Source: Bacillota bacterium (GTDB lineage Bacteria > Bacillota > Dehalobacteriia > UBA4068 > UBA4997). Taken from it: a stretch of DNA of 64,000 nt. Shown piece after piece: positions 33,252 through 56,533 of the stretch. The first letter of the stretch is position 1. Every line of letters begins with the position of its first letter. The notes under the pieces are model-generated. The model made no database searches. It was given only the letters and a program-made list of their open reading frames with translations, and was not told where the DNA came from. A program made the position numbers and the translations under genes. The stretch lies in contig JAVBWO010000012.1 of the NCBI GenBank assembly GCA_036677375.1, forward strand, positions 103,995 to 167,994, in the 5' to 3' direction.

Positions 33252-33725
33252 TTATAATTCCTTCATCATCGCGACTTCGTCGCAATTGGGGAATTTGGGA
33301 CAGTTGATGCATTCCGTCCACACCTTTTGCGGCAATAACTTGTTGTCGATCTTTTGAAACCCTACCGAACGGAAAAAATCCTCCTGATAGGTTAAGGCAA
33401 ACAATTTGGGAATCCCTAATTCTCTGGCCTCTTCTTCCAGCTTTTCCACAATATTTTTGCCGATGCCGATGTGATGGTAGTCTCCGTGTACTGCTAGGGA
33501 ACGCACCTCAGCCAAATCGGACCACAGGATATGCAGACCACCGACCCCCACTACTGTTTGATTTTCTTCAGCCACCACATATTCCCGCAAATTGTCATAA
33601 ATGGCAATCAACGGTTTAGCCAGCATCAAGCCACGTTCGGCGAAGCCGTTGATCAGCTTGTGGATCTCCGGGACATCGACCATCTTCGCTTTCCGATAGA
33701 TCATGGCAATACGCTCCTTAATCAT
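33252..33725 (-). CDS. GNAT family N-acetyltransferase (ArgA-short-like) with C-terminal Cys cluster
   Basis: Acetyl-CoA binding region (VAVHGDYHHIGIGKNIV) and C-terminal CxNCPxFxNC. First gene of the apparent ilv transcription unit. Confidence 0.65.
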   Translation of the reverse strand: MIKERIAMIYRKAKMVDVPEIHKLINGFAERGLMLAKPLIAIYDNLREYVVAEENQTVVGVGGLHILWSDLAEVRSLAVHGDYHHIGIGKNIVEKLEEEARELGIPKLFALTYQEDFFRSVGFQKIDNKLLPQKVWTECINCPKFPNCDEVAMMKEL

Positions 33726-33897
33726 TGGACATGTTCCCTTAAACTCGAGCTTCCCGTTTCATGCTGCTTTGTACCGAACCAAGCGCTCTTTGGCAGAAGA
33801 CTGCCTGTTTCAAGAGAAAACTGATATATGGTACAAAAACAGTACGGGGAAACGGGCATAAACCAGTCAAGCGAACATACCACAGCATTATCCTTGT

Positions 33898-33926
33898 ATT
33901 ATAGCAAAAGTAAGGAGGTATTACAA
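33898..33926 (-). promoter_or_regulatory. candidate sigma70 promoter (TTGTAA-17-TATAAT) for the GNAT-ilvDNB unit
   Basis: Minus-strand TTGTAAtacctccttacttttgcTATAAT, about 170 nt upstream of the GNAT start. Confidence 0.45.
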
Positions 33927-33952
33927 CTAGAGAAGCAGGCAAAAGAAGGTCT

Positions 33953-34975
33953 TTATCGGCAAAAATAGCAAACGGGGTATTTGCATACCTTACAGCCCCG
34001 GCACATGCCGCCTTCTCCCATAGCCGCAAAATCTTTTTTCGTCATTTCCACGCCCGCAAAAATCCGGGGCAAGATGACATCTAAGACCGTGGTGCGGAAA
34101 AACATGGCGCAGCCCGGCACCCCCACCAAAGCCGTTTCCCCCAAATAAGCCAGCATCGCCATATTGCCCGGCTGCACCGGCGCCCCATAGGTCACGACGT
34201 GAGCACCGCTTTGCGCGATGGCGGTGGGCGTCAAATCGTCCGGATCAACGGACATGCCGCCTGTTAAAATAATCAATTGAGCGCCTCGGTCCAGGTAGTC
34301 CCGGATCGCGGCGTTGATTTGGGTAAGATCATCGGGGCAAAGGGTCTGGCCTAAGAATTTGCCGCCATAGAATTTGATCTTCTCCTTGATCACCGGACCG
34401 AATTTATCCTCGATCCTGCCTTTATACACCTCACTGCCGGTGGTGACAACGCCGCAGGACAGGGTCTGATAGGGCAGCACATTGAATACTCTCTTTTCTT
34501 CCTTGGCCGCCAGTTCTTCCACTTCCAACAGCGCCTTTTCCGGCACCATGAGAGGCACGACCCGCACACCGGCCAGTTTCTGCCCTTTTTCCACATGATA
34601 AAAACCGGGCAGACTCGCCATAGTGACATAATCGATCAGGTTCATTTCGGCAAATACCGGAGAATTCACGGTAAAAAGACCTCTTTGCTCCGCGTATAAA
34701 TTGATTTTGCCTTCCGTAGGCTCATCATAGCTGATATTTTCTCCCGCGGTGGCTTGGGCCAGGCGGGAAGCCGCCTCGTTCTCATGCAGGAAATCTGGCT
34801 CAGGCTCCCAAACATAGATATTTTCTTTCCCGATGGAAAGCAGAACGGGAATGTCTTCTTCCGTAATAATATGGCCCTTTTTAAAGATAGCGCCTTTGAA
34901 GCCGTCGGGGATGATCTGGGTCATATCCTGGCACAATACCGTGCCGATGCTTTGTTCTACCGGAATACTTTTCAT
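33953..34975 (-). CDS. molybdopterin-binding (MoCF_biosynth/MoeA-CinA-like domain) protein with C-terminal Cys-rich tail
   Basis: GGMSVDPDD-type MoCF-binding motif. C-terminal CRGCKVCKYPVCYFCR. Last gene of the yqeC-mocA-yqeB-xdhC cluster. Confidence 0.5.
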   Translation of the reverse strand: MKSIPVEQSIGTVLCQDMTQIIPDGFKGAIFKKGHIITEEDIPVLLSIGKENIYVWEPEPDFLHENEAASRLAQATAGENISYDEPTEGKINLYAEQRGLFTVNSPVFAEMNLIDYVTMASLPGFYHVEKGQKLAGVRVVPLMVPEKALLEVEELAAKEEKRVFNVLPYQTLSCGVVTTGSEVYKGRIEDKFGPVIKEKIKFYGGKFLGQTLCPDDLTQINAAIRDYLDRGAQLIILTGGMSVDPDDLTPTAIAQSGAHVVTYGAPVQPGNMAMLAYLGETALVGVPGCAMFFRTTVLDVILPRIFAGVEMTKKDFAAMGEGGMCRGCKVCKYPVCYFCR

Positions 34976-36025
34976 TTATTTTTCCTCCTTGCGCAAGGTA
35001 ACGGGATCCAGGAACAGTTCGACGATGCCGCCGCAGACCATACCGTCCTCAGCTGCGTTTTTTCCTGTGATATCCACTTTCAGGTATCGGGGCTTCCCTG
35101 TATCCAGAGCCGTCAGGGCCTGCCGCCGCACTTCCGCCTCTACACAACCGCCGCCAATGGTATCGATACAGGTTCCGTCCGCCAATACCAGCATTTTAGT
35201 ACCGGCATCCCGGGGCGCGGAACCCTGCCGCCTGGTAATGGTCACCATGGTTTTGGGCATATCGGCAAAGGTTTCCTCTTGCAAGGCTTTTATAATCTCT
35301 TTGGGAATTTTACCGGCTTGAGATCCTTTATTTTTCTCAGCAATGATCTCCGCAAAAATGCTAATGGAGATTTCTTCCGGCGTTTCCGCCCCAATCTTCA
35401 GACCGATGGGACTATGGATACTGTTGACAAAGTCTTCCGCAAAACCCTCTGCGATCATGGCTTTTTTGACCAGAGCAACCCTGTTTTTGCTGCCGATCAT
35501 GCCAATATAGGCATGGGCTTTTCCCATGACCTGCCGGAGGCATATCTGGTCATACTGATGCCCCCTGGTCACAATGACGAAGTAATTGCCGGAGCTTTCC
35601 GGGACAGAAGCCAGCGCCTCCGTAAAATCCTGACACAATACCTGATCCGCCATGGGAAAGCGCTGAGTATTGGCAAAACTCTGCCGGTCGTCAATGATGG
35701 TGACTTCAAAACCCAGCATCTTACCGATTTGCGCCACCGGCAGCGAGACATGCCCGCCGCCGCATATGATGAGCCTGGGAGTGCCACCCAGGATCTCGGC
35801 AAAAATAACACTGTCTTCCACCTGAATCAAGCTTGGTTTTTTGACTTCAACCAAATAGGGTGCCGCTTTTTGCCAAAAATCGGCATTTGTACCCTCTACC
35901 ATATGACCGTTTTGCCTGTAAACGGACTTTCCCCCCAAAAGTTCCGGCTTTCCTTTGACGATGGTAGCCAAAACCAGCGGCTCTTTTTCCGCCCAAGCCG
36001 CCACTTTGGTATAAAATTGTTCCAT
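34976..36025 (-). CDS. xdhC: XdhC/CoxI family molybdenum hydroxylase accessory protein
   Basis: XdhC_CoxI N-domain, Rossmann-like XdhC_C (RLIICGGGHVSLPVAQ) and a second XdhC_CoxI-like segment. Confidence 0.7.
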   Translation of the reverse strand: MEQFYTKVAAWAEKEPLVLATIVKGKPELLGGKSVYRQNGHMVEGTNADFWQKAAPYLVEVKKPSLIQVEDSVIFAEILGGTPRLIICGGGHVSLPVAQIGKMLGFEVTIIDDRQSFANTQRFPMADQVLCQDFTEALASVPESSGNYFVIVTRGHQYDQICLRQVMGKAHAYIGMIGSKNRVALVKKAMIAEGFAEDFVNSIHSPIGLKIGAETPEEISISIFAEIIAEKNKGSQAGKIPKEIIKALQEETFADMPKTMVTITRRQGSAPRDAGTKMLVLADGTCIDTIGGGCVEAEVRRQALTALDTGKPRYLKVDITGKNAAEDGMVCGGIVELFLDPVTLRKEEK

Positions 36026-36042
36026 ACCTGTATCCTCCCTAA

Positions 36043-36831
36043 TTAATGCCTGGCCAGAAGCTTGTCCAAGGCCTCCAGCACACCGCCGCCGATGGCGCGG
36101 GCTTTATCCGAAACGGAAAAACAGTGTTCCACTTGACAGCGGGGATCAATATCTCCGATCTTCATGCCTTTTTCCACCATGAGCCCTTCCTGCAAGATCC
36201 CCCTTAATACCCCATCAATGGCCGCATAGACCGGAGCATCTTCTACATAAGCCAGGATCTCGTTGGCTTTGACTATATCGCCAATCTTTTTCTCGGGCCG
36301 AAAGAACCCATCCTTGGGCGCTTGAACCAGCCGTTCTATGGCATAGCCGCCCACATTGCCCGGAATACCGGTATTGGGCGCCGCTTCGCCTTGCCAAATC
36401 ACTCTGCCAAGGTGATGCCCCCGCTGAGTTTCCACCACGGCATGAGCGTCGACGCCAGCCGTAAAGCCGGGCCCCAGGGCAATGACCGCCTTGGCCTGAT
36501 GGAGGGAAGTTCCCAGATTCTTCTTGGCCAGTATAGCGTCTACCAAGCCGGAGAATTCTATTTGCTCTAAGATTCTAGCCGCGGGGTCAATAATAACAGG
36601 AACATGGCCGGCAGCCAAAACCACTTCAATTTCCGCGATATTTTTCGTCAAAATTCCTTTATGTCCTTCCACCCGGGTCTCCCCATCATAGACTGCCTGA
36701 GCAAAAGCTACCGTGCGCCGAATGACGGTGGGTTCGGCAATCTCGGTCATGACCACCTGATAGCCCGCGTTCAAAAGGCGGCAAGCCACACCGGTTGCCA
36801 GATCCCCCGCCCCTTTGATCAAAATCCTCAT
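36043..36831 (-). CDS. yqeB: selenium-dependent molybdenum hydroxylase system protein, YqeB family
   Basis: 262 aa. N-terminus MRILIKGAGDLATGVACRLLNAGYQVVMTE...PTVIRRTVAFAQAV matches my recollection of E. coli YqeB. Co-clustered with yqeC, xdhC and mocA. Confidence 0.6.
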   Translation of the reverse strand: MRILIKGAGDLATGVACRLLNAGYQVVMTEIAEPTVIRRTVAFAQAVYDGETRVEGHKGILTKNIAEIEVVLAAGHVPVIIDPAARILEQIEFSGLVDAILAKKNLGTSLHQAKAVIALGPGFTAGVDAHAVVETQRGHHLGRVIWQGEAAPNTGIPGNVGGYAIERLVQAPKDGFFRPEKKIGDIVKANEILAYVEDAPVYAAIDGVLRGILQEGLMVEKGMKIGDIDPRCQVEHCFSVSDKARAIGGGVLEALDKLLARH

Positions 36832-37003
36832 ATCGTCCCCTCTTTCTGTGTATCAGTACCATTTACCGGATTACCTGTTTGTATGCAAGCTTTCTTTGTC
36901 ATAGCGATTCCTTTGTTTAAAAAAAACGCCTCTTGGGGTTTCCAACATAGTTTTTAATGATGAAGCCCTCACCATTTTTTATTTTTGCGCTGCCTGGGCA
37001 ATT

Positions 37004-37630
37004 CTATGCCTGACACCCCTTGGGGATTCCGGGGAAAGCTGTTGTCCCCCGAATCTCTGCATTTTTCCATTTTTCATATTCTTCCGGCGTATCGATATCG
37101 ATGACCACACCGGGATCATCCACCGGTACCAGGATATGCGAATGCCGGTGGAACAATTCTCTTGCTCCGGTATCTCCTTTAAGCTCTCTTAATTCCGGCA
37201 GCAAATCGGCAGCAAATAAAACGGGATTGCCTCGCCGGCCTTGGTATACCGGAGCCACCAGAGGAATACTGTTTTCTTGATAGACATCAATGATGCGATT
37301 GACCGTTTCTTTTTGCAAAAGCGGCACATCCCCCAAACAAAAGAGGATTCCTTGGCATTCCGGTGCAAGCTGAGCCAAGCCCGCCTGAAGACTATGGCTC
37401 TGACCCATGGCATATTGGGGGCTGGCAATGATATTCCAGCCCGGCAAATTTTCCAGATGGCGCCAACGTCCCGCTTCATGCCCTAAAACCAGTATTTTTT
37501 GGGAAGCCTTGGTTTGAGACAGCATGGCAAGCGTGCTTTCCAAAACGGTAGAATGCCCCCAGGGCAGGGCCAGCTTGTTTGTGCCCATGCGGCGGGATTG
37601 TCCGGCAGCCAAAACGATCAATGAAATCAC
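37004..37630 (-). CDS. mocA: MobA-like NTP transferase (molybdenum cofactor cytidylyltransferase MocA-like)
   Basis: LIVLAAGQSRRMGTNKLALPW N-terminal motif of the MobA/MocA family. Confidence 0.7.
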   Translation of the reverse strand: MISLIVLAAGQSRRMGTNKLALPWGHSTVLESTLAMLSQTKASQKILVLGHEAGRWRHLENLPGWNIIASPQYAMGQSHSLQAGLAQLAPECQGILFCLGDVPLLQKETVNRIIDVYQENSIPLVAPVYQGRRGNPVLFAADLLPELRELKGDTGARELFHRHSHILVPVDDPGVVIDIDTPEEYEKWKNAEIRGTTAFPGIPKGCQA

Positions 37631-38394
37631 TTTTTATCCTCCCACATCTGTCTTACAAGGGGTTCATTTTGCGCCGTAGTGACCAAAACTTTCTTGATGC
37701 CGCGCCGCAAAAGCAGGGGCGCCATTTTAGCGGCTAAATCCAAACGCTCCCGGTTATCCGCTTTGTTTAAGCACACCACAAGTTCCGAATGAGGCGCTCT
37801 TCCTTTCAAGCCGCCCATTGGTGAAGTCAAGACATCGGCGGCTAATTCCGGTGTAATAAAATCCCCCAGCTTCTTGCCGCTGATGGCCGCAATTCTTTCC
37901 GGCCGGTGGCAGAAATCAGCCGATAGCGGTTGTCCCAAAGCATCCAACCCAAATACCAGTACTTGGAGTCCGGTAAAAGGCGGTACCACAGGCTCATGCT
38001 CCGCCGGGGCTTTAAAAGGCAGTCCGGCCGCACCGTCCGCTTCCACCAAAACATAAGCGCCGTGATTCAACAGCTGTAAAAGAATCGCTTCCTCCGCCGG
38101 GAGCAATTTCCCATTAATGCCCACGCCCGGCGCCACAGTAATGACCTTCCCCTTTTTTAGGGCTCTTTCCGCCTCTTCCCTTAATTCGACGGCTTCTTTC
38201 CTGATAATCACAGCGTCCGCTTCCCAGGGTGCCGGCACCCAGATCCGTGTTGTGGTGGCAACAGCCACCATTTCCCCCTGTTCTTTCAATTCTCTTGCCA
38301 AACGCCACATGAGACTGGTCTTACCCCCGCCGCCGGTGAATGCAATCAGCGTGGGCGCGTCTAGTGCCAGACATTTTAAAAACGAGTGATTCAT
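37627..38394 (-). CDS. yqeC: selenium-dependent hydroxylase accessory protein YqeC family
   Basis: 255 aa with a P-loop-like GGGGKTS near the N-terminus. 4-nt overlap with mocA. Confidence 0.6.
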   Translation of the reverse strand: MNHSFLKCLALDAPTLIAFTGGGGKTSLMWRLARELKEQGEMVAVATTTRIWVPAPWEADAVIIRKEAVELREEAERALKKGKVITVAPGVGINGKLLPAEEAILLQLLNHGAYVLVEADGAAGLPFKAPAEHEPVVPPFTGLQVLVFGLDALGQPLSADFCHRPERIAAISGKKLGDFITPELAADVLTSPMGGLKGRAPHSELVVCLNKADNRERLDLAAKMAPLLLRRGIKKVLVTTAQNEPLVRQMWEDKK

Positions 38395-38747
38395 GATTTG
38401 GTTTCACCTCCTGAAAAATAGTCGTCAAAGGCCTTTTCAATGAAGTTACTGCATTCTTTATAGAATCCCTCATATTGCATCATAAGATTTTCCGCTTCCG
38501 GTGTCAAATGCGTCTCACCGCCGCCAATGCCTCCCGTATGGCTTGAAATCAGTTCGAAGCCCAGATTCCGGCTGAGTTTTTTCATCATGGTATGTGCCTG
38601 GCTGTAAGACATGTTTTGTTCCTTCGCAGCTTGGGCTAAAGAGCCGTACCGGCGGATTCCCTGTAGAAGATGATAAGGTCCAATGCCGAAAGCCTTGCCA
38701 CTTGTTTCAAGCCATAACTTGTAACGCAGCTTATACATAGAAAACAC
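38391..38747 (-). CDS. ModE-like winged-helix (molybdate-responsive regulator N-domain) protein
   Basis: 118 aa. GSLAQAAKEQNMSYSQAHTMMKKL...GGIGGGETHLT matches the ModE_N/TOBE-less HTH family. Confidence 0.7.
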   Translation of the reverse strand: MFSMYKLRYKLWLETSGKAFGIGPYHLLQGIRRYGSLAQAAKEQNMSYSQAHTMMKKLSRNLGFELISSHTGGIGGGETHLTPEAENLMMQYEGFYKECSNFIEKAFDDYFSGGETKS

Positions 38748-38819
38748 ATCCTCGATATTCTTATTTGAATATAACGGGGTTGGAAAAAAACTGCATCCGC
38801 ACGAATGCAGTTTTTATAT

Positions 38820-39512
38820 TTAACTTTCTTGTTTTTTGTCCCAGATATGAATAAAGGCATCCTTGCTTTGCAGGATATGGTTCCTGGCTACTGTTTCCGC
38901 CAATGATGCATCCCTATTTTCGATCGCCCGGTACAACTGTTCATGCTCTTCGTATGCCTGAATCCAATAATCTTTAATATAATAGCTCCTGAAAAGTTGA
39001 AGATATTCGGTATAATCGCATAAGAGCTGTTCTAAACGCTTGTTGCCACCCGCCGTATAAATGATCAAATGAAACTCACGGTGAAATCTCATTTCGCGGT
39101 CTCGGTCACCCGATTCCAGGCTGGTCCACATCTCATTCAAGATGGAACGGAGCCTTTTAATATCCTCAGGAGTGGCGTGCTGTACCATTAAATTGGCGGC
39201 ATACCCTTCCAGCAAAGCACACATTTCATAGAGGTCTGTGGCGTCCTTAGGCGTGATCTGCCGCACTTCCACTCCTCTGCGGCGGTAATGCTTCACCAGG
39301 CCTTCCGACTCCAATTTGCGTAATGCCTCCCGTACCGGCGTCCTGGAAGCATTGAGCCGTTTCGCCAGTTCTTCTTCCACCAGATGGACACCGGCCTGCA
39401 AACGCCCGCAAATGATGGCGCTGCGCATATACTGGTAGATCAACTCTCGCATGGGAATAAATTCACGTTCTGCAGCAAAATCTGTAAAATCGTCAAATAC
39501 ATTAAGAGTCAA
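38820..39512 (-). CDS. GntR family transcriptional regulator (FadR/FCD subfamily)
   Basis: N-terminal wHTH (LNASRTPVREALRKLESEGLV) plus a C-terminal FCD domain. Confidence 0.85.
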   Translation of the reverse strand: MTLNVFDDFTDFAAEREFIPMRELIYQYMRSAIICGRLQAGVHLVEEELAKRLNASRTPVREALRKLESEGLVKHYRRRGVEVRQITPKDATDLYEMCALLEGYAANLMVQHATPEDIKRLRSILNEMWTSLESGDRDREMRFHREFHLIIYTAGGNKRLEQLLCDYTEYLQLFRSYYIKDYWIQAYEEHEQLYRAIENRDASLAETVARNHILQSKDAFIHIWDKKQES

Positions 39513-51558: not shown

Positions 51559-52242
51559 TCAGCAATATACATTCATATCCTGCCCGCGGATAAAACCAAC
51601 CAAGGTCATATTGGATGCTTTGGCTTTTTCCACACCTCCTGTTGTCGCCGCGGAACGGGACAACAGAACCCCAATGCCGTGTTCTGCCGCCAGACTAACA
51701 ATGGACGTTGTCAAACGGCAGGTCAAAGCAACAATCTTATCTTCCAACGGGATATCATTTAAGAAGGCGTGGCCCAAAAGCTTATACATGGCATTATGCC
51801 GGCTGATATCCTCTGTAAAATAGAGGGGCTCGCTGCCCCGGCAAAGCAGGGCGCTGTGCGCTGCGCCCGTTTGCGTAAATAAGGCGGCCTTCCCTTCCAA
51901 TATCTTCATGATGCCGCTGTATTGAGAGATAGGCAGGCTAATTTTAGCACTTTTATTTTCAGGCTCCCGCACCGTTTTACTTTGCGTATCCCGGATCATG
52001 GCATCAATCTTTTTTGATGGATCCTCCACTTTGATGGATAAAATATCCCGGGGCGCCGTGATCATCCCGGCTTCCCAAAGGAGACCCGCCGTCAATTCCG
52101 TCAATTGAGCGGGAGTACACAGCACCTTTTGCCAAAAGCAGCCGTTAAGATCAATCTGGTATTCCGCTTCCACGGCCAGAATATCCCAGGTACTGCCGGC
52201 AGCCTTTTGCACCGGCAGTTTTTCCGTTATCACGGTTGCCAT
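51559..52242 (-). CDS. fdhD: formate dehydrogenase accessory sulfurtransferase FdhD
   Basis: 227 aa. C-terminal FdhD pattern (TSIVSLAAEHGIGVLLSRSAATTGGVEKA). Immediately downstream of fdhA. Confidence 0.8.
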   Translation of the reverse strand: MATVITEKLPVQKAAGSTWDILAVEAEYQIDLNGCFWQKVLCTPAQLTELTAGLLWEAGMITAPRDILSIKVEDPSKKIDAMIRDTQSKTVREPENKSAKISLPISQYSGIMKILEGKAALFTQTGAAHSALLCRGSEPLYFTEDISRHNAMYKLLGHAFLNDIPLEDKIVALTCRLTTSIVSLAAEHGIGVLLSRSAATTGGVEKAKASNMTLVGFIRGQDMNVYC

Positions 52243-52255
52243 TATAGCCCCCCCC

Positions 52256-54934
52256 TCAAGCCTTTTGGATACTTACCGCGCAGGCCTTTAATTCCGGGAT
52301 CTTCGCCTTAGGGTCCATGGCCGAATTGGTCAGGAGATTGGCGTTGCCCTCGCTGTAATGGAAGGGCATGAACACCACATCCTGCCGGATCTTTTCACTG
52401 AGCCTGGCAGTGGTTTTCAACTCGCCGCGGCGCGAACGGACCACAACCGTATCCCCGTTCTGAATGCCTAAAGCCGCGGCAGCGGTGGGATTGATCTCGA
52501 TAAAGGATTGCCCCGCCAGGCGGTTGAGACCTTCCACCTGTCCGGTCATAGTGCGGGTATGGTATTGATAAAGCAGACGGCCGGTAGTCAGGATATAAGG
52601 ATATTCCGGATCGGGCAGCTCGGCGCTGGGCCGGTAATCGGTGGCCGTAAAAAGTCCCTTGCCCCGGGAAAAAGAATCTTTGTGCAGATAAGGGGTGCCG
52701 GGGTGATGCAGGTTGGGACACGGCCATTGCAGGCTGCCCTCTTCCTCCAAACGCCGGTAAGTAATGCCGCCGTAAGACGGCGTTAAAAAAGAAAGCTCAT
52801 CCATGATATCCTCGGGAGAACGGGCGACACTGCAATAGCCTAAACCGTCCATGACCGAAAGCAGGATCTCGGTATCGGCTTTGGCGTTGCCCTTGGGGGG
52901 AATGGCCTTGCGAACCCGCTGCACACGGCGTTCGGTATTGGTGAAGGTGCCGTCCTTTTCCGCAAAAGAAGCGGCAGGCAGTACCACATCCGCCAAAGCG
53001 GCCGTCTCGGTAAGGAAAATATCCTGCACCACCAGGAAGTCAAGACTTGCCAGGGCATGCAACACATGGTTGGTATCCGGCTCGGACAAAGCGGGGTTTT
53101 CTCCCATAATATATAAGAGGGATATCTTACCGGAAACGGCGCCCTCCATAATCTCCATCACCGTCAAGCCGGGGGCTTCCGGCAATTGGGGCACTCCCCA
53201 CCAATGGGCGAATTTCTCCCGGATATTGGGATCACCGACCTTTTGATAGCCAGGCAATACATCCGGCAGACACCCCATATCACAGGCGCCTTGCACGTTA
53301 TTTTGCCCCCGCAAGGGATTGATGCCGCCATATTCATGACCGATATGACCGCATAACAATGCCAGATTGGACAAAGCCATCACCGAGTCGGTGCCGGTGG
53401 TATGTTGGGTAATGCCCATGGCGTAGAAAATACCGGCCCGTTTGGCGCCCGCATAGAGCCGGGCCGCTTTTTTGATATCTTCGGCGGCAACGCCGCAAAT
53501 CTCCGCCGCTTTTTCCGCTGTCCAATTTTGCAATAAAGCAGCTAACGCTGCATAATTTTCCGTCCGCTGGTCAATAAAAGTACCGTTCGTCAGGTTCTCA
53601 TCCAGGATCGTCCGCATCATGCCGTTAATCAAAGCGATATTAGTTCCAGGGCGGATCTGTAAAAAGACTTCCGCATGATTGCACATATCCACATAGCGGG
53701 GCTCCGCCACAATAATTTTTGCACCCTTTTGTTTTGCCTGCTTCATCTGGGCGGCAATCACGGGGTGTGCCTCTGTGGTGTTGGAGCCGATAATAAAGAT
53801 CAGGTCCAATCCTTTGACTTCCCGGATACTGTTGGTCATGGCGCCGCTGCCTAAAGTCGTTGCCAGACCGGCAACGGTGGAAGCGTGTCACAAACGGGCG
53901 CAGTGGTCCACATTGTTGGAACCGATGACGCCGCGGAATAGCTTTTGGAAAAGATAATTCTCTTCATTGGTACAGCGGGCGGAAGAAAGACCTGCTATAG
54001 ATTGCCCACCTTTGGTTTCCTTGGTTTCTTTGATCTTTTTGACCACCAAAGCGACGGCTTCCTCCCAGGAAGCCTCACGGAATTCGCCGTTTTCTTTGAT
54101 CAGGGGTTGGGTCAAACGCCGGGGGCTGTCTATGAAGTTATAACCGAATTTCCCTTTTACACAGAGCAAGCCGTCATTGGCGGGACCGGGCGCCGGCTCC
54201 ACCCCCACGATCTTGCCGCCTGAAGAAATGAGATCCAACTGGCAACCTACGCCGCAATAAGCGCAAACGGTACGGGTGGCCTTGCTTTGCGGAACCTGGT
54301 ATTGATAACCATTTTTAGGGGTTAAGGCCCCCACAGGACAATTGGAAACACAATTGCCGCAGGAAACACAGCGGGATTGATCAAGAGGCAGCAGAAATTC
54401 CGGTGAAATTTGGGTTCTCATGCCTCTGCCCACCGTCTCTATGGCATACATCCCTTGCAGCTGGCTGCATACCCGAACACAGCGGTGGCAAAGGATACAT
54501 TTATTCCGATCCAGATTGAAGAATGGATTGCTCTCATCCACGGGATAGGCCGGCGGCTTGGCGGGAAAGCTGCTTTCCCCCACGCCATACTCCCGGCAGT
54601 ATTCCTGCAGGCGACAGTGACCGGCGGCATTACAGACCAGACATTCCACTTTATGGGTGGAAAGGATCAATTCCAAAATGGTACGCCGAGCCGTCAACAC
54701 ACGCTCCGAACGGGTAAAAATCTCCATGCCGTCCATAATCTCCGTGGCACAGGCTATTTTTAAATTGCGCTGTCCCGTAACTTCTACCACGCACAAACGG
54801 CAGCTGCCATCCGGTGTTAACTTCTCCATATAACACAGGGTAGGGATGTCGATGCCCATGGCCTTGGCGGCATTTAAAATGGTCATGGGCTTTTCTGCGG
54901 TAAATTTACGGTTATCAATGGTAATGGTTATCAT
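52256..54934 (-). CDS. fdhA: selenocysteine-containing formate dehydrogenase alpha subunit (2Fe-2S + 4Fe-4S + Mo-bisPGD domains). Track ORFs 53888..54934 and 52256..53839 are one gene read through an in-frame TGA.
   Basis: The N-terminal ORF ends ...NNVDHCARL at TGA (53888-53890). The next ATG (53839) is exactly 17 codons downstream in the same frame. Read-through gives CARL-U-HASTVAGLATTLGSGAMTN, which aligns with the E. coli FdhF Sec140 region (ARV-U-HGPSVAGLHQSVGNGAMSN). A SECIS-like hairpin follows. Confidence 0.85.
53855..53887 (-). promoter_or_regulatory. SECIS-like stem-loop immediately 3' of the UGA (GUUGCC-GGUCU-GGCAAC)
   Basis: mRNA UGA CAC GCU UCC ACC GUUGCCGGUCUGGCAAC. The hairpin starts 15 nt after the UGA and has an apical loop containing GGUC, as in the fdhF SECIS. 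Confidence 0.65.
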
Positions 54935-55489: not shown

Positions 55490-55960
55490 TTAGCGGGGAT
55501 AAATGCCAACGAAACTGGGGGTATCGCTATCTTCAGTGGTATACTGAACTTCGGTAACCTGAACACCATCTTCAATACTGCTATCGGCACTGACGACCAA
55601 AGCAACATAGCCGCTGAAACCGGAACCTAAGACGTTTTTCAAAGTAGGAGATACATCATTAGCAGTTAAAGTGCTGATAGGAGTCCAGTCATCCGCAGCT
55701 TCTATAGCGGCTAAGAGGTCTTCCGCTTCACCAAAGCTTGAATTACTAATCAGGTCGGCAAAAGTGGTCTGCAAGGCCAGGGCGAAGGTCTGGGCATTGG
55801 CATCTACCGCGGCTTGGCGGGCGTCGGAAACATAATTGGTCACGACGGGAATGAGGATGGCCGCCAAAATAGCGATGATGGCGATGACGACAATGAGTTC
55901 CACCAGGGTAAAGCCTTTCTTGTTCATGAGTTTGTTCATAGGATGTTTGATTTTTAACAT
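55490..55960 (-). CDS. type IV pilin (prepilin with class III signal peptide), paralog 1
   Basis: N-terminus ...KKG|FTLVELIVVIAIIAILAAILIP. Start chosen at MLKIKH after GAAGGAGGG RBS (alternative internal Met starts exist). C-terminus ends GIYPR. Confidence 0.85.
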   Translation of the reverse strand: MLKIKHPMNKLMNKKGFTLVELIVVIAIIAILAAILIPVVTNYVSDARQAAVDANAQTFALALQTTFADLISNSSFGEAEDLLAAIEAADDWTPISTLTANDVSPTLKNVLGSGFSGYVALVVSADSSIEDGVQVTEVQYTTEDSDTPSFVGIYPR

Positions 55961-56041
55961 AAGGTTCCCTCCTTCAATTTTTTTAAATATTGATAATACA
56001 ATCAAATATGTTATGGTTAAGAAATTATTAATGGCCTTTTA

Positions 56042-56533
56042 TTATCTGGGATAAACGCCGATGAAGTTCAGCCCGGTATCAGTTGCGGTATCGGTGGGAA
56101 TACTCTCGCTACTGTAGCGAACTTCAGATATATCCAGCCCTGTGCTGGGGCTGCCAGTAGCGGTAATGTCAACGATACCTGTAAAGCCGGTACCCAAAAT
56201 GTTGCTAAATGTGGGGGATGCGGTTCTTAAAGCAGAAATATTCGTCCAATTGCCGGTAATAGCAGTGTCCAGAGCTGTTGCTTCCGTCAGCATGGCAGCA
56301 CGCGCCGTGGCATCGGCCGCACCCAAGCCGCTGATGAGATCAGCAAAAGTAGTCTGCAAAGCGACGGCGACAGTCTGGGCATTGGCGTCGGCCGAGGATT
56401 GGCGGGCGTCGGAAACATAATTGGTAACGACGGGAATAAGAATGGCGGCTAAAATAGCAATGATAGCGATAACGACGATAAGTTCTACCAAGGTAAAGCC
56501 TTTTCTGTTTCTCAATGGTTTGATTTTTGGCAT
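56042..56533 (-). CDS. type IV pilin (prepilin), paralog 2
   Basis: MPKIKPLRNRKG|FTLVELIVVIAIIAILAAILIPVVTNYVSDARQ... The first ~50 mature residues are identical to paralog 1. AGGAGGAAACCGG RBS. Confidence 0.85.
   Translation of the reverse strand: MPKIKPLRNRKGFTLVELIVVIAIIAILAAILIPVVTNYVSDARQSSADANAQTVAVALQTTFADLISGLGAADATARAAMLTEATALDTAITGNWTNISALRTASPTFSNILGTGFTGIVDITATGSPSTGLDISEVRYSSESIPTDTATDTGLNFIGVYPR

Follow-up and report, generated by a model that had tools for sequence, protein, structure and literature searches.

A probable six-gene operon for late molybdenum hydroxylase cofactor maturation behind a ModE-type operator in a Bacillota genome

A 64,000-nucleotide stretch of a Bacillota genome (GCA_036677375.1, contig JAVBWO010000012.1, positions 103,995 to 167,994; hereafter the window) carries six co-directional genes on its minus strand, between positions 33953 and 38747, which were identified from the open reading frame (ORF) listing and from NCBIfam and Pfam scans. 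The original prediction, made from the sequence alone, had described them as a maturation cluster for selenium-dependent molybdenum hydroxylases, with short gaps or overlaps between the genes and with ilv genes on one side and pyrE and comB on the other. The gene arrangement and the flanks are as it described, and its overall interpretation is partly supported by the analysis presented here. The genes, the features that precede them, and the models or evidence behind each assignment are as follows.

38391-38747 as an ORF, 38391..38738 with the probable ATG, minus strand: short ModE winged helix-turn-helix (wHTH) protein (TIGR00637, NF007957, Pfam HTH_1)
37627..38394, minus strand: YqeC, a marker of the selenium-cofactor trait (TIGR03172, PF19842)
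37004..37630, minus strand: MocA-like molybdenum cofactor cytidylyltransferase (TIGR03310, PF12804)
36043..36831, minus strand: YqeB, a marker of the selenium-dependent molybdenum hydroxylase trait (TIGR03309)
34976..36025, minus strand: XdhC-family cofactor chaperone (PF13478, PF02625)
33953..34975, minus strand: M340, a MoeA-like molybdopterin-binding protein of 340 residues with a Cys-rich tail (PF00994)
38753..38776, minus strand: ModE-type operator, a 24-bp palindrome (pattern match, comparative conservation)
38784..38810, minus strand: hairpin and T-run ending the pyrE-gntR unit (read from the sequence)
38820..39512, minus strand: GntR/FCD regulator, the upstream neighbor, outside the operon (PF00392 and PF07729)

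In gene order, the wHTH gene overlaps yqeC by 4 nucleotides (nt) and yqeC overlaps mocA by 4 nt, after which come a gap of 172 nt between mocA and yqeB, a gap of 17 nt between yqeB and xdhC, and a junction at which xdhC and the M340 gene abut (0 nt). One flank of the locus holds ilvD, ilvN, and ilvB and a GNAT gene, and the opposite flank holds gntR, pyrE, and comB. Just past the gntR stop codon lies the hairpin ctgcat-tcgtgcgg-atgcag-ttttttt, with seven T residues, and the same hairpin is present in the relative L006. Because this terminator-like hairpin stands between gntR and the six genes, gntR is assigned to a separate transcription unit. The ModE protein does head the cluster, as had been proposed, but the GntR regulator does not follow it: gntR is upstream in the direction of transcription, with the hairpin between. 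Since genes overlap and a hairpin followed by a T-run lies upstream, we read the locus as a single operon, modE(short)-yqeC-mocA-yqeB-xdhC-M340, which we consider probable as one part of the overall explanation set out below.

Consensus promoter and terminator scans were uninformative, giving counts near or modestly above chance, and the hairpin at 38784-38810 was absent from their list. Across both strands of the window (positions 1-64000), no Rfam family was matched at gathering score (no tRNA, riboswitch, or leader), so that a molybdenum cofactor riboswitch of the RF01055 type is absent upstream of the operon; at E ≤ 1 over positions 33700-39000, the only match was a chance one to a long noncoding RNA. 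Genes in the loci fetched for comparison were picked by a homology-weighted choice among ORFs. A 430-residue plus-strand ORF at 34754-36046, antisense to xdhC and the start of the M340 gene, had no homologues among these loci and was set aside as an artefact. On the downstream side, a 227-nt spacer (33726-33952) separates the M340 stop codon from the GNAT gene, which encodes an N-acetyltransferase (NF005840). The spacer has no Rfam match and contains a good promoter-like site, TTGTAA-17-TATAAT with a TG, at 33926-33898; the leader of approximately 170 nt that follows this site holds a GGCAG-TCTT-CTGCC hairpin.

The original prediction had made its case depend on placing 36043..36831 in TIGR03309 and 37627..38394 in TIGR03172, and both proteins are placed there. 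YqeB scores 360.2 bits against TIGR03309 over its full length (cut-off, 220) and matches no Pfam family, and YqeC scores 186 bits against TIGR03172 (cut-off, 73) and 142 bits against PF19842 and carries the P-loop motif FTGGGGKTS. No solved structural relative was found for either protein. The proposed XdhC assignment holds as well, and the MocA-like one is probable. The best match of the MocA-like protein is TIGR03310, at 179.6 bits and just under the cut-off of 186.45, with the MobA models at 36 to 43 bits (TIGR02665, 39.5). XdhC contains PF13478 (XdhC_C) at residues 85-227 (146.5 bits) and PF02625 (XdhC_CoxI) at residues 257-317 (89.8 bits), and residues 1-80 give a weak, degenerate CoxI-like match to PF02625 (E = 0.019). 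The domain order is thus degenerate CoxI-like, Rossmann, and CoxI, and relatives in the Protein Data Bank are 2we7 and 3on5.

The last gene encodes the least familiar protein of the set. A domain search of M340 returned PF00994 (MoCF_biosynth) alone, at residues 175-305, followed by a five-Cys tail, C325-x2-C-x2-C-x4-C-x2-C, in keeping with the MoCF-binding protein with a Cys-rich tail that had been reported from the sequence. Neither the N-terminal 170 residues nor the tail matches any Pfam family, even at E ≤ 10. M340 has no MoeA_N or MoeA_C domain and so lacks the MoeA_N, MoCF_biosynth, and MoeA_C architecture, and its scores against the NCBIfam models for MoeA are all far under the cut-offs. 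In a 26-member alignment, the motif GGMSVDPDD and the residues C325, C328, C331, and C336 are invariant, and C339 is nearly so. The AlphaFold model is confident except in the tail (predicted local distance difference test score, 87.5), and its best solved matches in Foldseek are MoeA and the gephyrin E domain (4.5e-9). The likeness of M340 to MoeA is thus one of fold only.

M340 belongs to a large family. In a word-indexed search, the number of clusters at 90% identity was at least 7990; most are of approximately 339 residues and 55 to 87% identical, and their source label is simply "molybdopterin-binding protein." When the representatives at 50% identity were searched exhaustively, 560 were recovered at E ≤ 1e-30, among them some fusions and tail-less forms of approximately 324 residues; variants of approximately 530 to 560 residues with an N-terminal extension also exist. 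The family lacks both a curated model of its own and a solved structure, and a literature search by Desulfovibrio locus tags and keywords found no characterisation of M340. To describe its genomic setting, 84 loci anchored on M340 were surveyed for neighbors within 10 kb (80 species genomes, three relatives, and the window). The most frequent neighbors were MoaA (34 loci), ModC (33), XdhC (23), and MocA (21), followed by YqeB, ModA, and MogA/MoaB (20 each), MoaC (19), YqeC and a Mop-type aldehyde oxidoreductase (17 each), MOSC (16), and MobB (11). M340 is often tandem-duplicated and co-occurs with separate genes of 400 to 420 residues that were taken, by size alone, to be MoeA; on that basis, M340 would not stand in for MoeA.

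By the evidence of these neighborhoods, M340 is a general, uncharacterised component of the molybdenum cofactor (Moco) loci of anaerobes, which some lineages have recruited into a YqeC-MocA-YqeB-XdhC cassette. The earlier remark that such clusters do not normally include the MoCF-binding protein stands in one sense and fails in another. In a second survey, of 80 metagenome loci anchored on YqeB (19 of them with at least 6 kb on both sides), M340 is a minority neighbor, present in 6/80 loci and in 5/19 of those with long flanks, and its usual home is in general Moco and molybdate transport loci. In relatives of the window, on the other hand, it is a fixed member of the cassette (L003, L006, L008, L010, L011, L012, L018, L033, L042, and L078).

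Two other arrangements of M340 recur among the surveyed loci. Two tandem copies lie in moaA-moaC-mogA-mobAB operons in loci of the L013-L089 range (e.g., L014, L022, L023, L025, L038, L043, L047, and L063). M340 also lies directly upstream of a Mop-type aldehyde oxidoreductase of approximately 900 residues in Desulfovibrionaceae (L036, L041, L046, L052, L061, L068, L074, and L076) and in L032, L049, and L062; the oxidoreductase is followed by a Fer4_20/CCG-domain protein of approximately 800 residues, by MoaA, and, in the longer loci (L068 and L076), by XdhC. The latter layout is a conserved locus type apart from the YqeB cassette.

At the other end of the operon, the first gene encodes a DNA-binding domain of the ModE type. 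The protein matches TIGR00637 (E = 3.4e-15) at 55.9 bits, under the cut-off of 98.5 because only the DNA-binding part is present, and aligns to positions 23-101 of the 263 in the E. coli ModE equivalog profile NF007957 (E = 1.9e-8); Pfam HTH_1 is above threshold. No Mop or TOBE match was found in its 115 to 118 residues, and the tandem molybdate-binding domains are absent. The start codon is most likely the ATG at 38738, which gives 115 residues and is preferred because a GAGGA stands 10 nt upstream and the same start is used in L006. DNA-binding-only ModE proteins occur in Desulfovibrio, with a different operator, and their sensing mechanism has been called unclear (PMC545781). Among 29 wHTH homologues in the fetched loci, two are fused to YqeC (L008 and L010) and eight to MocA. 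These fusions, together with the overlap of the wHTH gene and yqeC in the window, suggest that the ModE DNA-binding domain works with a cofactor-pathway protein instead of molybdate-binding domains. The short ModE protein most likely senses through a partner, and YqeC would be the best candidate, since the two form one polypeptide in relatives and their genes overlap here.

The MocA-wHTH fusions, of approximately 305 to 315 residues, are found in loci from gut metagenomes (L093, L095, L097, L120, L127, and L141) and in L089. In the gut loci that extend far enough, the fusion is followed by modABC, and it adjoins YgfK-YqeC-YqeB/MocA and uric-acid genes (SsnA, diaminopropionate ammonia-lyase, and xanthine permease).

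On the minus strand, the region upstream of the operon reads hairpin, palindrome, GAGGA, 10 nt, and the ATG at 38738. The palindrome, CGTTATATTCAAATAAGAATATCG, fits CGnTATATA-N6-TATATAnCG, as well as the E. coli ModE consensus, quoted as ATCGnTATATA-N6-TATATAnCGAT (PMC545781). It is the sole match in the window to CGWTAT-N12-ATAWCG at one mismatch or fewer, and the four further matches at two mismatches are at chance level. The box lies just upstream of the orthologous first gene in the syntenic loci L006 and L010 (exact) and L008 (one mismatch), although the rest of the spacer has diverged. When 164 loci were scanned, 38 matches were found at one mismatch or fewer, 27 of them wholly intergenic, compared to 1.4 in shuffled intergenic DNA, and intergenic DNA makes up 8.5% of the sequence in these loci. 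Exact intergenic boxes numbered 8, against 0.025 in the shuffles. The intergenic boxes stand upstream of yqeC, yqeB, xdhC, M340, modA, moaA, and hydroxylase genes, which is strong comparative evidence for a predicted ModE-type regulon that takes in these maturation genes. In the window, the predicted operator overlaps the likely promoter, and the short ModE protein probably autoregulates the operon. No second ModE box was found in the 172-nt gap between mocA and yqeB or near fdhA, and an alignment of the gap with those of relatives showed no conserved block.

The cassette occupies the same chromosomal site, between pyrE(-gntR) and GNAT-ilvD, in L006, L008, and L010, whose M340 proteins are 87%, 67%, and 62% identical to that of the window, respectively. 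In L010, a metagenome-assembled genome (MAG) of the Clostridiales, and in L006, gntR is syntenic as well, and it is absent in L008. The cassette of L008 (7453-13244) is without XdhC, has the wHTH fused to YqeC, and is followed after M340 by a ModABC-type transporter. The same cassette order is found beside hydroxylase genes in "Candidatus Formimonas warabiya," an oil-associated MAG, a Syntrophomonas MAG, and Clostridium species. In comparison to L006, the ratios of nonsynonymous to synonymous substitution rates (dN/dS) in five genes of the operon range from 0.056 to 0.14 (YqeC, 0.14; MocA, 0.13; YqeB, 0.056; XdhC, 0.11) at a dS of more than 1; for the wHTH gene, dN is 0.12 and dS is saturated. 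The flanking housekeeping genes have ratios of 0.01 to 0.045. By these substitution rates, the cassette is kept by purifying selection and is not a decaying remnant.

No gene for a client enzyme is present in the window. Six hydroxylase large-subunit seeds and seeds for the flavin adenine dinucleotide (FAD) and iron-sulfur subunits, SelD, YgfK, SsnA, and a selenocysteine-lyase-like protein (SclA) were searched against the 64 kb with tblastn, and no gene was found; the same holds for ModABC, MoaA, MoaC, MOSC, and MobB. Beyond the seeds' own genes, the only matches were weak ones, in which the seeds for MogA and MobA hit M340 and mocA. Every ORF of 130 residues or more in the window was read as well. 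The earlier observation that no hydroxylase subunit or selD lies within 25 kb therefore extends to the whole window. It had been proposed that the target enzyme is encoded remotely or that the cluster serves an unrecognised partner. The first proposal agrees with the comparative data and the second is not needed: a hydroxylase large subunit is in reach in 10/19 YqeB loci with long flanks and not in the other 9/19, and among the 22 M340-anchored loci with YqeB or YqeC, 8 have one within 10 kb. In C. difficile, yqeB is far from the xdh loci, and a gene for molybdopterin biosynthesis comes after yqeC-mocA (PMC11448449). Similarly, selD is far from TIGR03309 genes in genomes with selenocysteine or selenouridine (Haft and Self, PMC2276186), and homologues of XdhC, such as E. 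coli YqeB, as well as xdhC-mocA operons unlinked to an enzyme have been considered possible shared chaperones (Neumann and Leimkuhler, PMC2997495). Since approximately half of YqeB loci are unlinked and the literature holds precedents, the absence of a hydroxylase here is unremarkable. The other usual neighbors of YqeB (SelD, the selenocysteine-lyase-like protein, YgfK, SsnA, diaminopropionate ammonia-lyase, and xanthine permease) are likewise missing from the window.

Selenium use by the cell is indicated by a formate dehydrogenase locus elsewhere in the window.

52256..54934, minus strand: selenocysteine formate dehydrogenase alpha subunit (fdhA), with an in-frame TGA at 53888-53890 (HCARL-U-HASTVAGL)
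51559-52242: fdhD, directly downstream of fdhA

The fdhA gene was read as two ORFs (53888-54934 and 52256-53839) joined at the in-frame TGA. This codon confirms that FdhA carries its own selenocysteine, as had been noted originally, and supports a selenium supply in the cell; it points to selenocysteine decoding and hence to a selD gene in the genome. Farther along, a tandem pair of genes for type IV pilin-like proteins of 171 and 163 residues (55490-56533), with near-identical N-terminal and divergent C-terminal halves, lies upstream of pilT/pilB-like ATPase genes.

The explanation that we consider probable is that the operon carries out late stages in the conversion of Mo-molybdopterin to the cofactor, probably a selenium-bearing one, of hydroxylases in the xanthine oxidase family. 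In this view, a ModE operator stands in front of the operon, a hairpin insulates it from pyrE-gntR, and selD and the genes for one or more client hydroxylases would lie at other sites in the genome. M340 would handle or deliver molybdopterin or Mo-molybdopterin upstream of MocA, as suggested by its fold, its invariant MogA/MoeA-type motif, and its neighborhoods. MocA would then add CMP to Mo-molybdopterin, yielding the cytosine dinucleotide cofactor, a step that is established for the MocA family. XdhC would bind and protect the cofactor while the terminal ligand is installed and then insert it into the apo-enzyme, as established for R. capsulatus XdhC, on which the cofactor is sulfurated while bound (PMC2997495). 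YqeB, with YqeC as a P-loop helper, would make the terminal ligand labile selenium from the selenophosphate of SelD, a role suggested by phylogenetic profiling and a C. difficile knockout: the TIGR03309 family is restricted to selD-positive genomes (PMC2276186), and on xanthine and urate, deleting yqeB has the same effect as mutation of selD (PMC11448449; see also bioRxiv 10.1101/2025.04.24.650524). On the comparative evidence, the short ModE protein would autoregulate the operon by binding, probably together with YqeC, to the operator at the promoter.

Several observations weigh against this explanation. The 172-nt gap between mocA and yqeB is without a ModE box, and the last three genes may be under a promoter of their own; whether the box mediates repression or activation is judged only from its position. 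MocA and both XdhC equivalog models (TIGR02964 and NF045664) are under their curated cut-offs, and the C. difficile yqeC deletion has no phenotype (PMC11448449). The biochemical roles given to YqeB, YqeC, and M340 are predicted ones. Neither a hydroxylase gene nor selD was found within the 64 kb, and a profile built from five cassette-adjacent hydroxylase large subunits gave no match tied to the contig of the window among the 120 matches listed, which were mostly Atribacteria-like.

A more far-reaching possibility, which we advance tentatively, combines two proposals: that the short ModE protein governs a cofactor-sensing rather than molybdate-sensing regulon, through YqeC or MocA, that includes the selenium-cofactor markers, and that M340 performs an unrecognised Moco step in anaerobes. 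The sensing partner would be separate but translationally coupled in the window and fused in relatives, and M340 might be, for example, a carrier or insertase dependent on a Cys-ligated metal or Fe-S center that acts between MoeA and MocA.

It is unlikely that the cassette instead matures the ordinary sulfur-containing cytosine dinucleotide cofactor, for a Mop-type aldehyde oxidoreductase or another enzyme of the xanthine oxidase family, with YqeB and YqeC acting as general XdhC-like and MobB-like chaperones. XdhC scores 282 bits against NF045664 (XdhC_rel_AOR) and MocA 129 bits against NF045665 (DVU_1551 family), two models linked to Desulfovibrio aldehyde oxidoreductase, and M340 is directly upstream of a Mop-type aldehyde oxidoreductase in 17/84 loci. 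YqeB has also been treated as an XdhC homologue (PMC2997495), and the missing phenotype of the yqeC deletion (PMC11448449) fits a general chaperone. Nevertheless, YqeB is far above the TIGR03309 equivalog cut-off, the family is reported from selD-positive genomes only (PMC2276186), and deletion of yqeB resembles a selD mutation (PMC11448449). In addition, selD and a selenocysteine-lyase-like gene often adjoin yqeB, and the cell decodes selenocysteine. All of these favor a selenium-bearing cofactor.

Still less probable is a general supply of molybdenum or tungsten cofactor for bis-guanine-dinucleotide enzymes, such as the FdhA 14 kb away, in place of a hydroxylase-specific role. The presence of FdhA and FdhD in the window, the prevalence of moaA, modABC, moaC, mogA, and mobAB among the neighbors of M340, and the ModE boxes that precede modA and moaA in other loci would all suit such a role. 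The transferase, however, is of the MocA type (179.6 bits against 39.5 for MobA), there is no mobA or mobB in the cluster, chaperones of the XdhC type serve the xanthine oxidase family specifically (PMC2997495), and formate dehydrogenase is served by FdhD and not by XdhC. Least probable of all, and very improbable, is an orphan remnant whose client enzyme was lost from the lineage: no hydroxylase is encoded in the 30 kb to each side or within 10 kb in the syntenic L006, L008, and L010, but all six ORFs are intact, dN/dS is 0.06 to 0.14 at saturating dS, the operator is conserved, the locus keeps its chromosomal site in relatives down to 62% identity, and about half of YqeB loci likewise have no linked hydroxylase.

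Of the routes by which biology uses selenium, the one that supplies selenium-dependent molybdenum hydroxylases is the least understood, and these enzymes matter for the anaerobic breakdown of purines and urate, in the gut as elsewhere. The locus is real but ordinary and adds no new principle; the missing-enzyme puzzle is ordinary and already described, and the absence of a nearby hydroxylase should not be taken as unusual. What the analysis adds is the ModE operator, the ModE-domain fusions, and the recognition of M340 as a large family. For reconstitution, the compact and conserved YqeC-MocA-YqeB-XdhC-M340 cassette suggests a set of proteins to express together. The ModE-type operator links the yqeB and yqeC markers with a molybdenum-responsive regulon and offers a way to search for client genes, and the M340 family and the proteins in which the ModE domain is joined to YqeC or MocA point to testable missing pieces of late cofactor maturation.

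The locus can be compared to several known systems. The mocA(ygfJ)-yqeB-yqeC genes of E. coli and the set of Haft and Self (TIGR03309, TIGR03172, and TIGR03310) cluster the same three families, the MocA-like protein of the window being a probable member, and tie an XdhC-like function to YqeB, whereas the window has a separate xdhC, a short ModE gene, and a MoeA-like protein with a Cys tail in the operon and lacks both the purine-catabolic neighbors (ygfK, ssnA, ygeX, and a permease) and, within 64 kb, a hydroxylase. In C. difficile, the accessory genes are likewise split from or loosely linked to the hydroxylases, and a gene of the molybdopterin biosynthesis type follows yqeC-mocA; the Peptostreptococcaceae loci L026 and L027 (YqeC-MocA-M340) are related to this layout. 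The window differs from C. difficile in having yqeB and xdhC in the same operon. Stand-alone xdhC-mocA operons have been described as well (PMC2997495).

At the level of single proteins, the DNA-binding domain is homologous to that of E. coli ModE and the operator type is common to both, but the window protein is without the two Mop domains, in whose place relatives carry YqeC or MocA. M340 has a domain like MogA, MoaB, and domain III of MoeA, and the C-terminal domain IV is replaced by the five-Cys tail. XdhC has both family Pfam domains in common with R. capsulatus XdhC and E. coli PaoD, with the canonical CoxI domain after, not before, the Rossmann domain. A layout that matches the window in gene order is that of "Ca. 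Formimonas warabiya" CP017634 (L003), where the order YqeC-MocA-YqeB-XdhC-M340 is identical. There, a ModE box sits in the mocA-yqeB interval within the cluster, no wHTH gene is present, YqeB is fused to the XdhC Rossmann domain, CoxI is encoded by a separate gene of 102 residues, and a hydroxylase large subunit and a FAD subunit are encoded 7 genes downstream.

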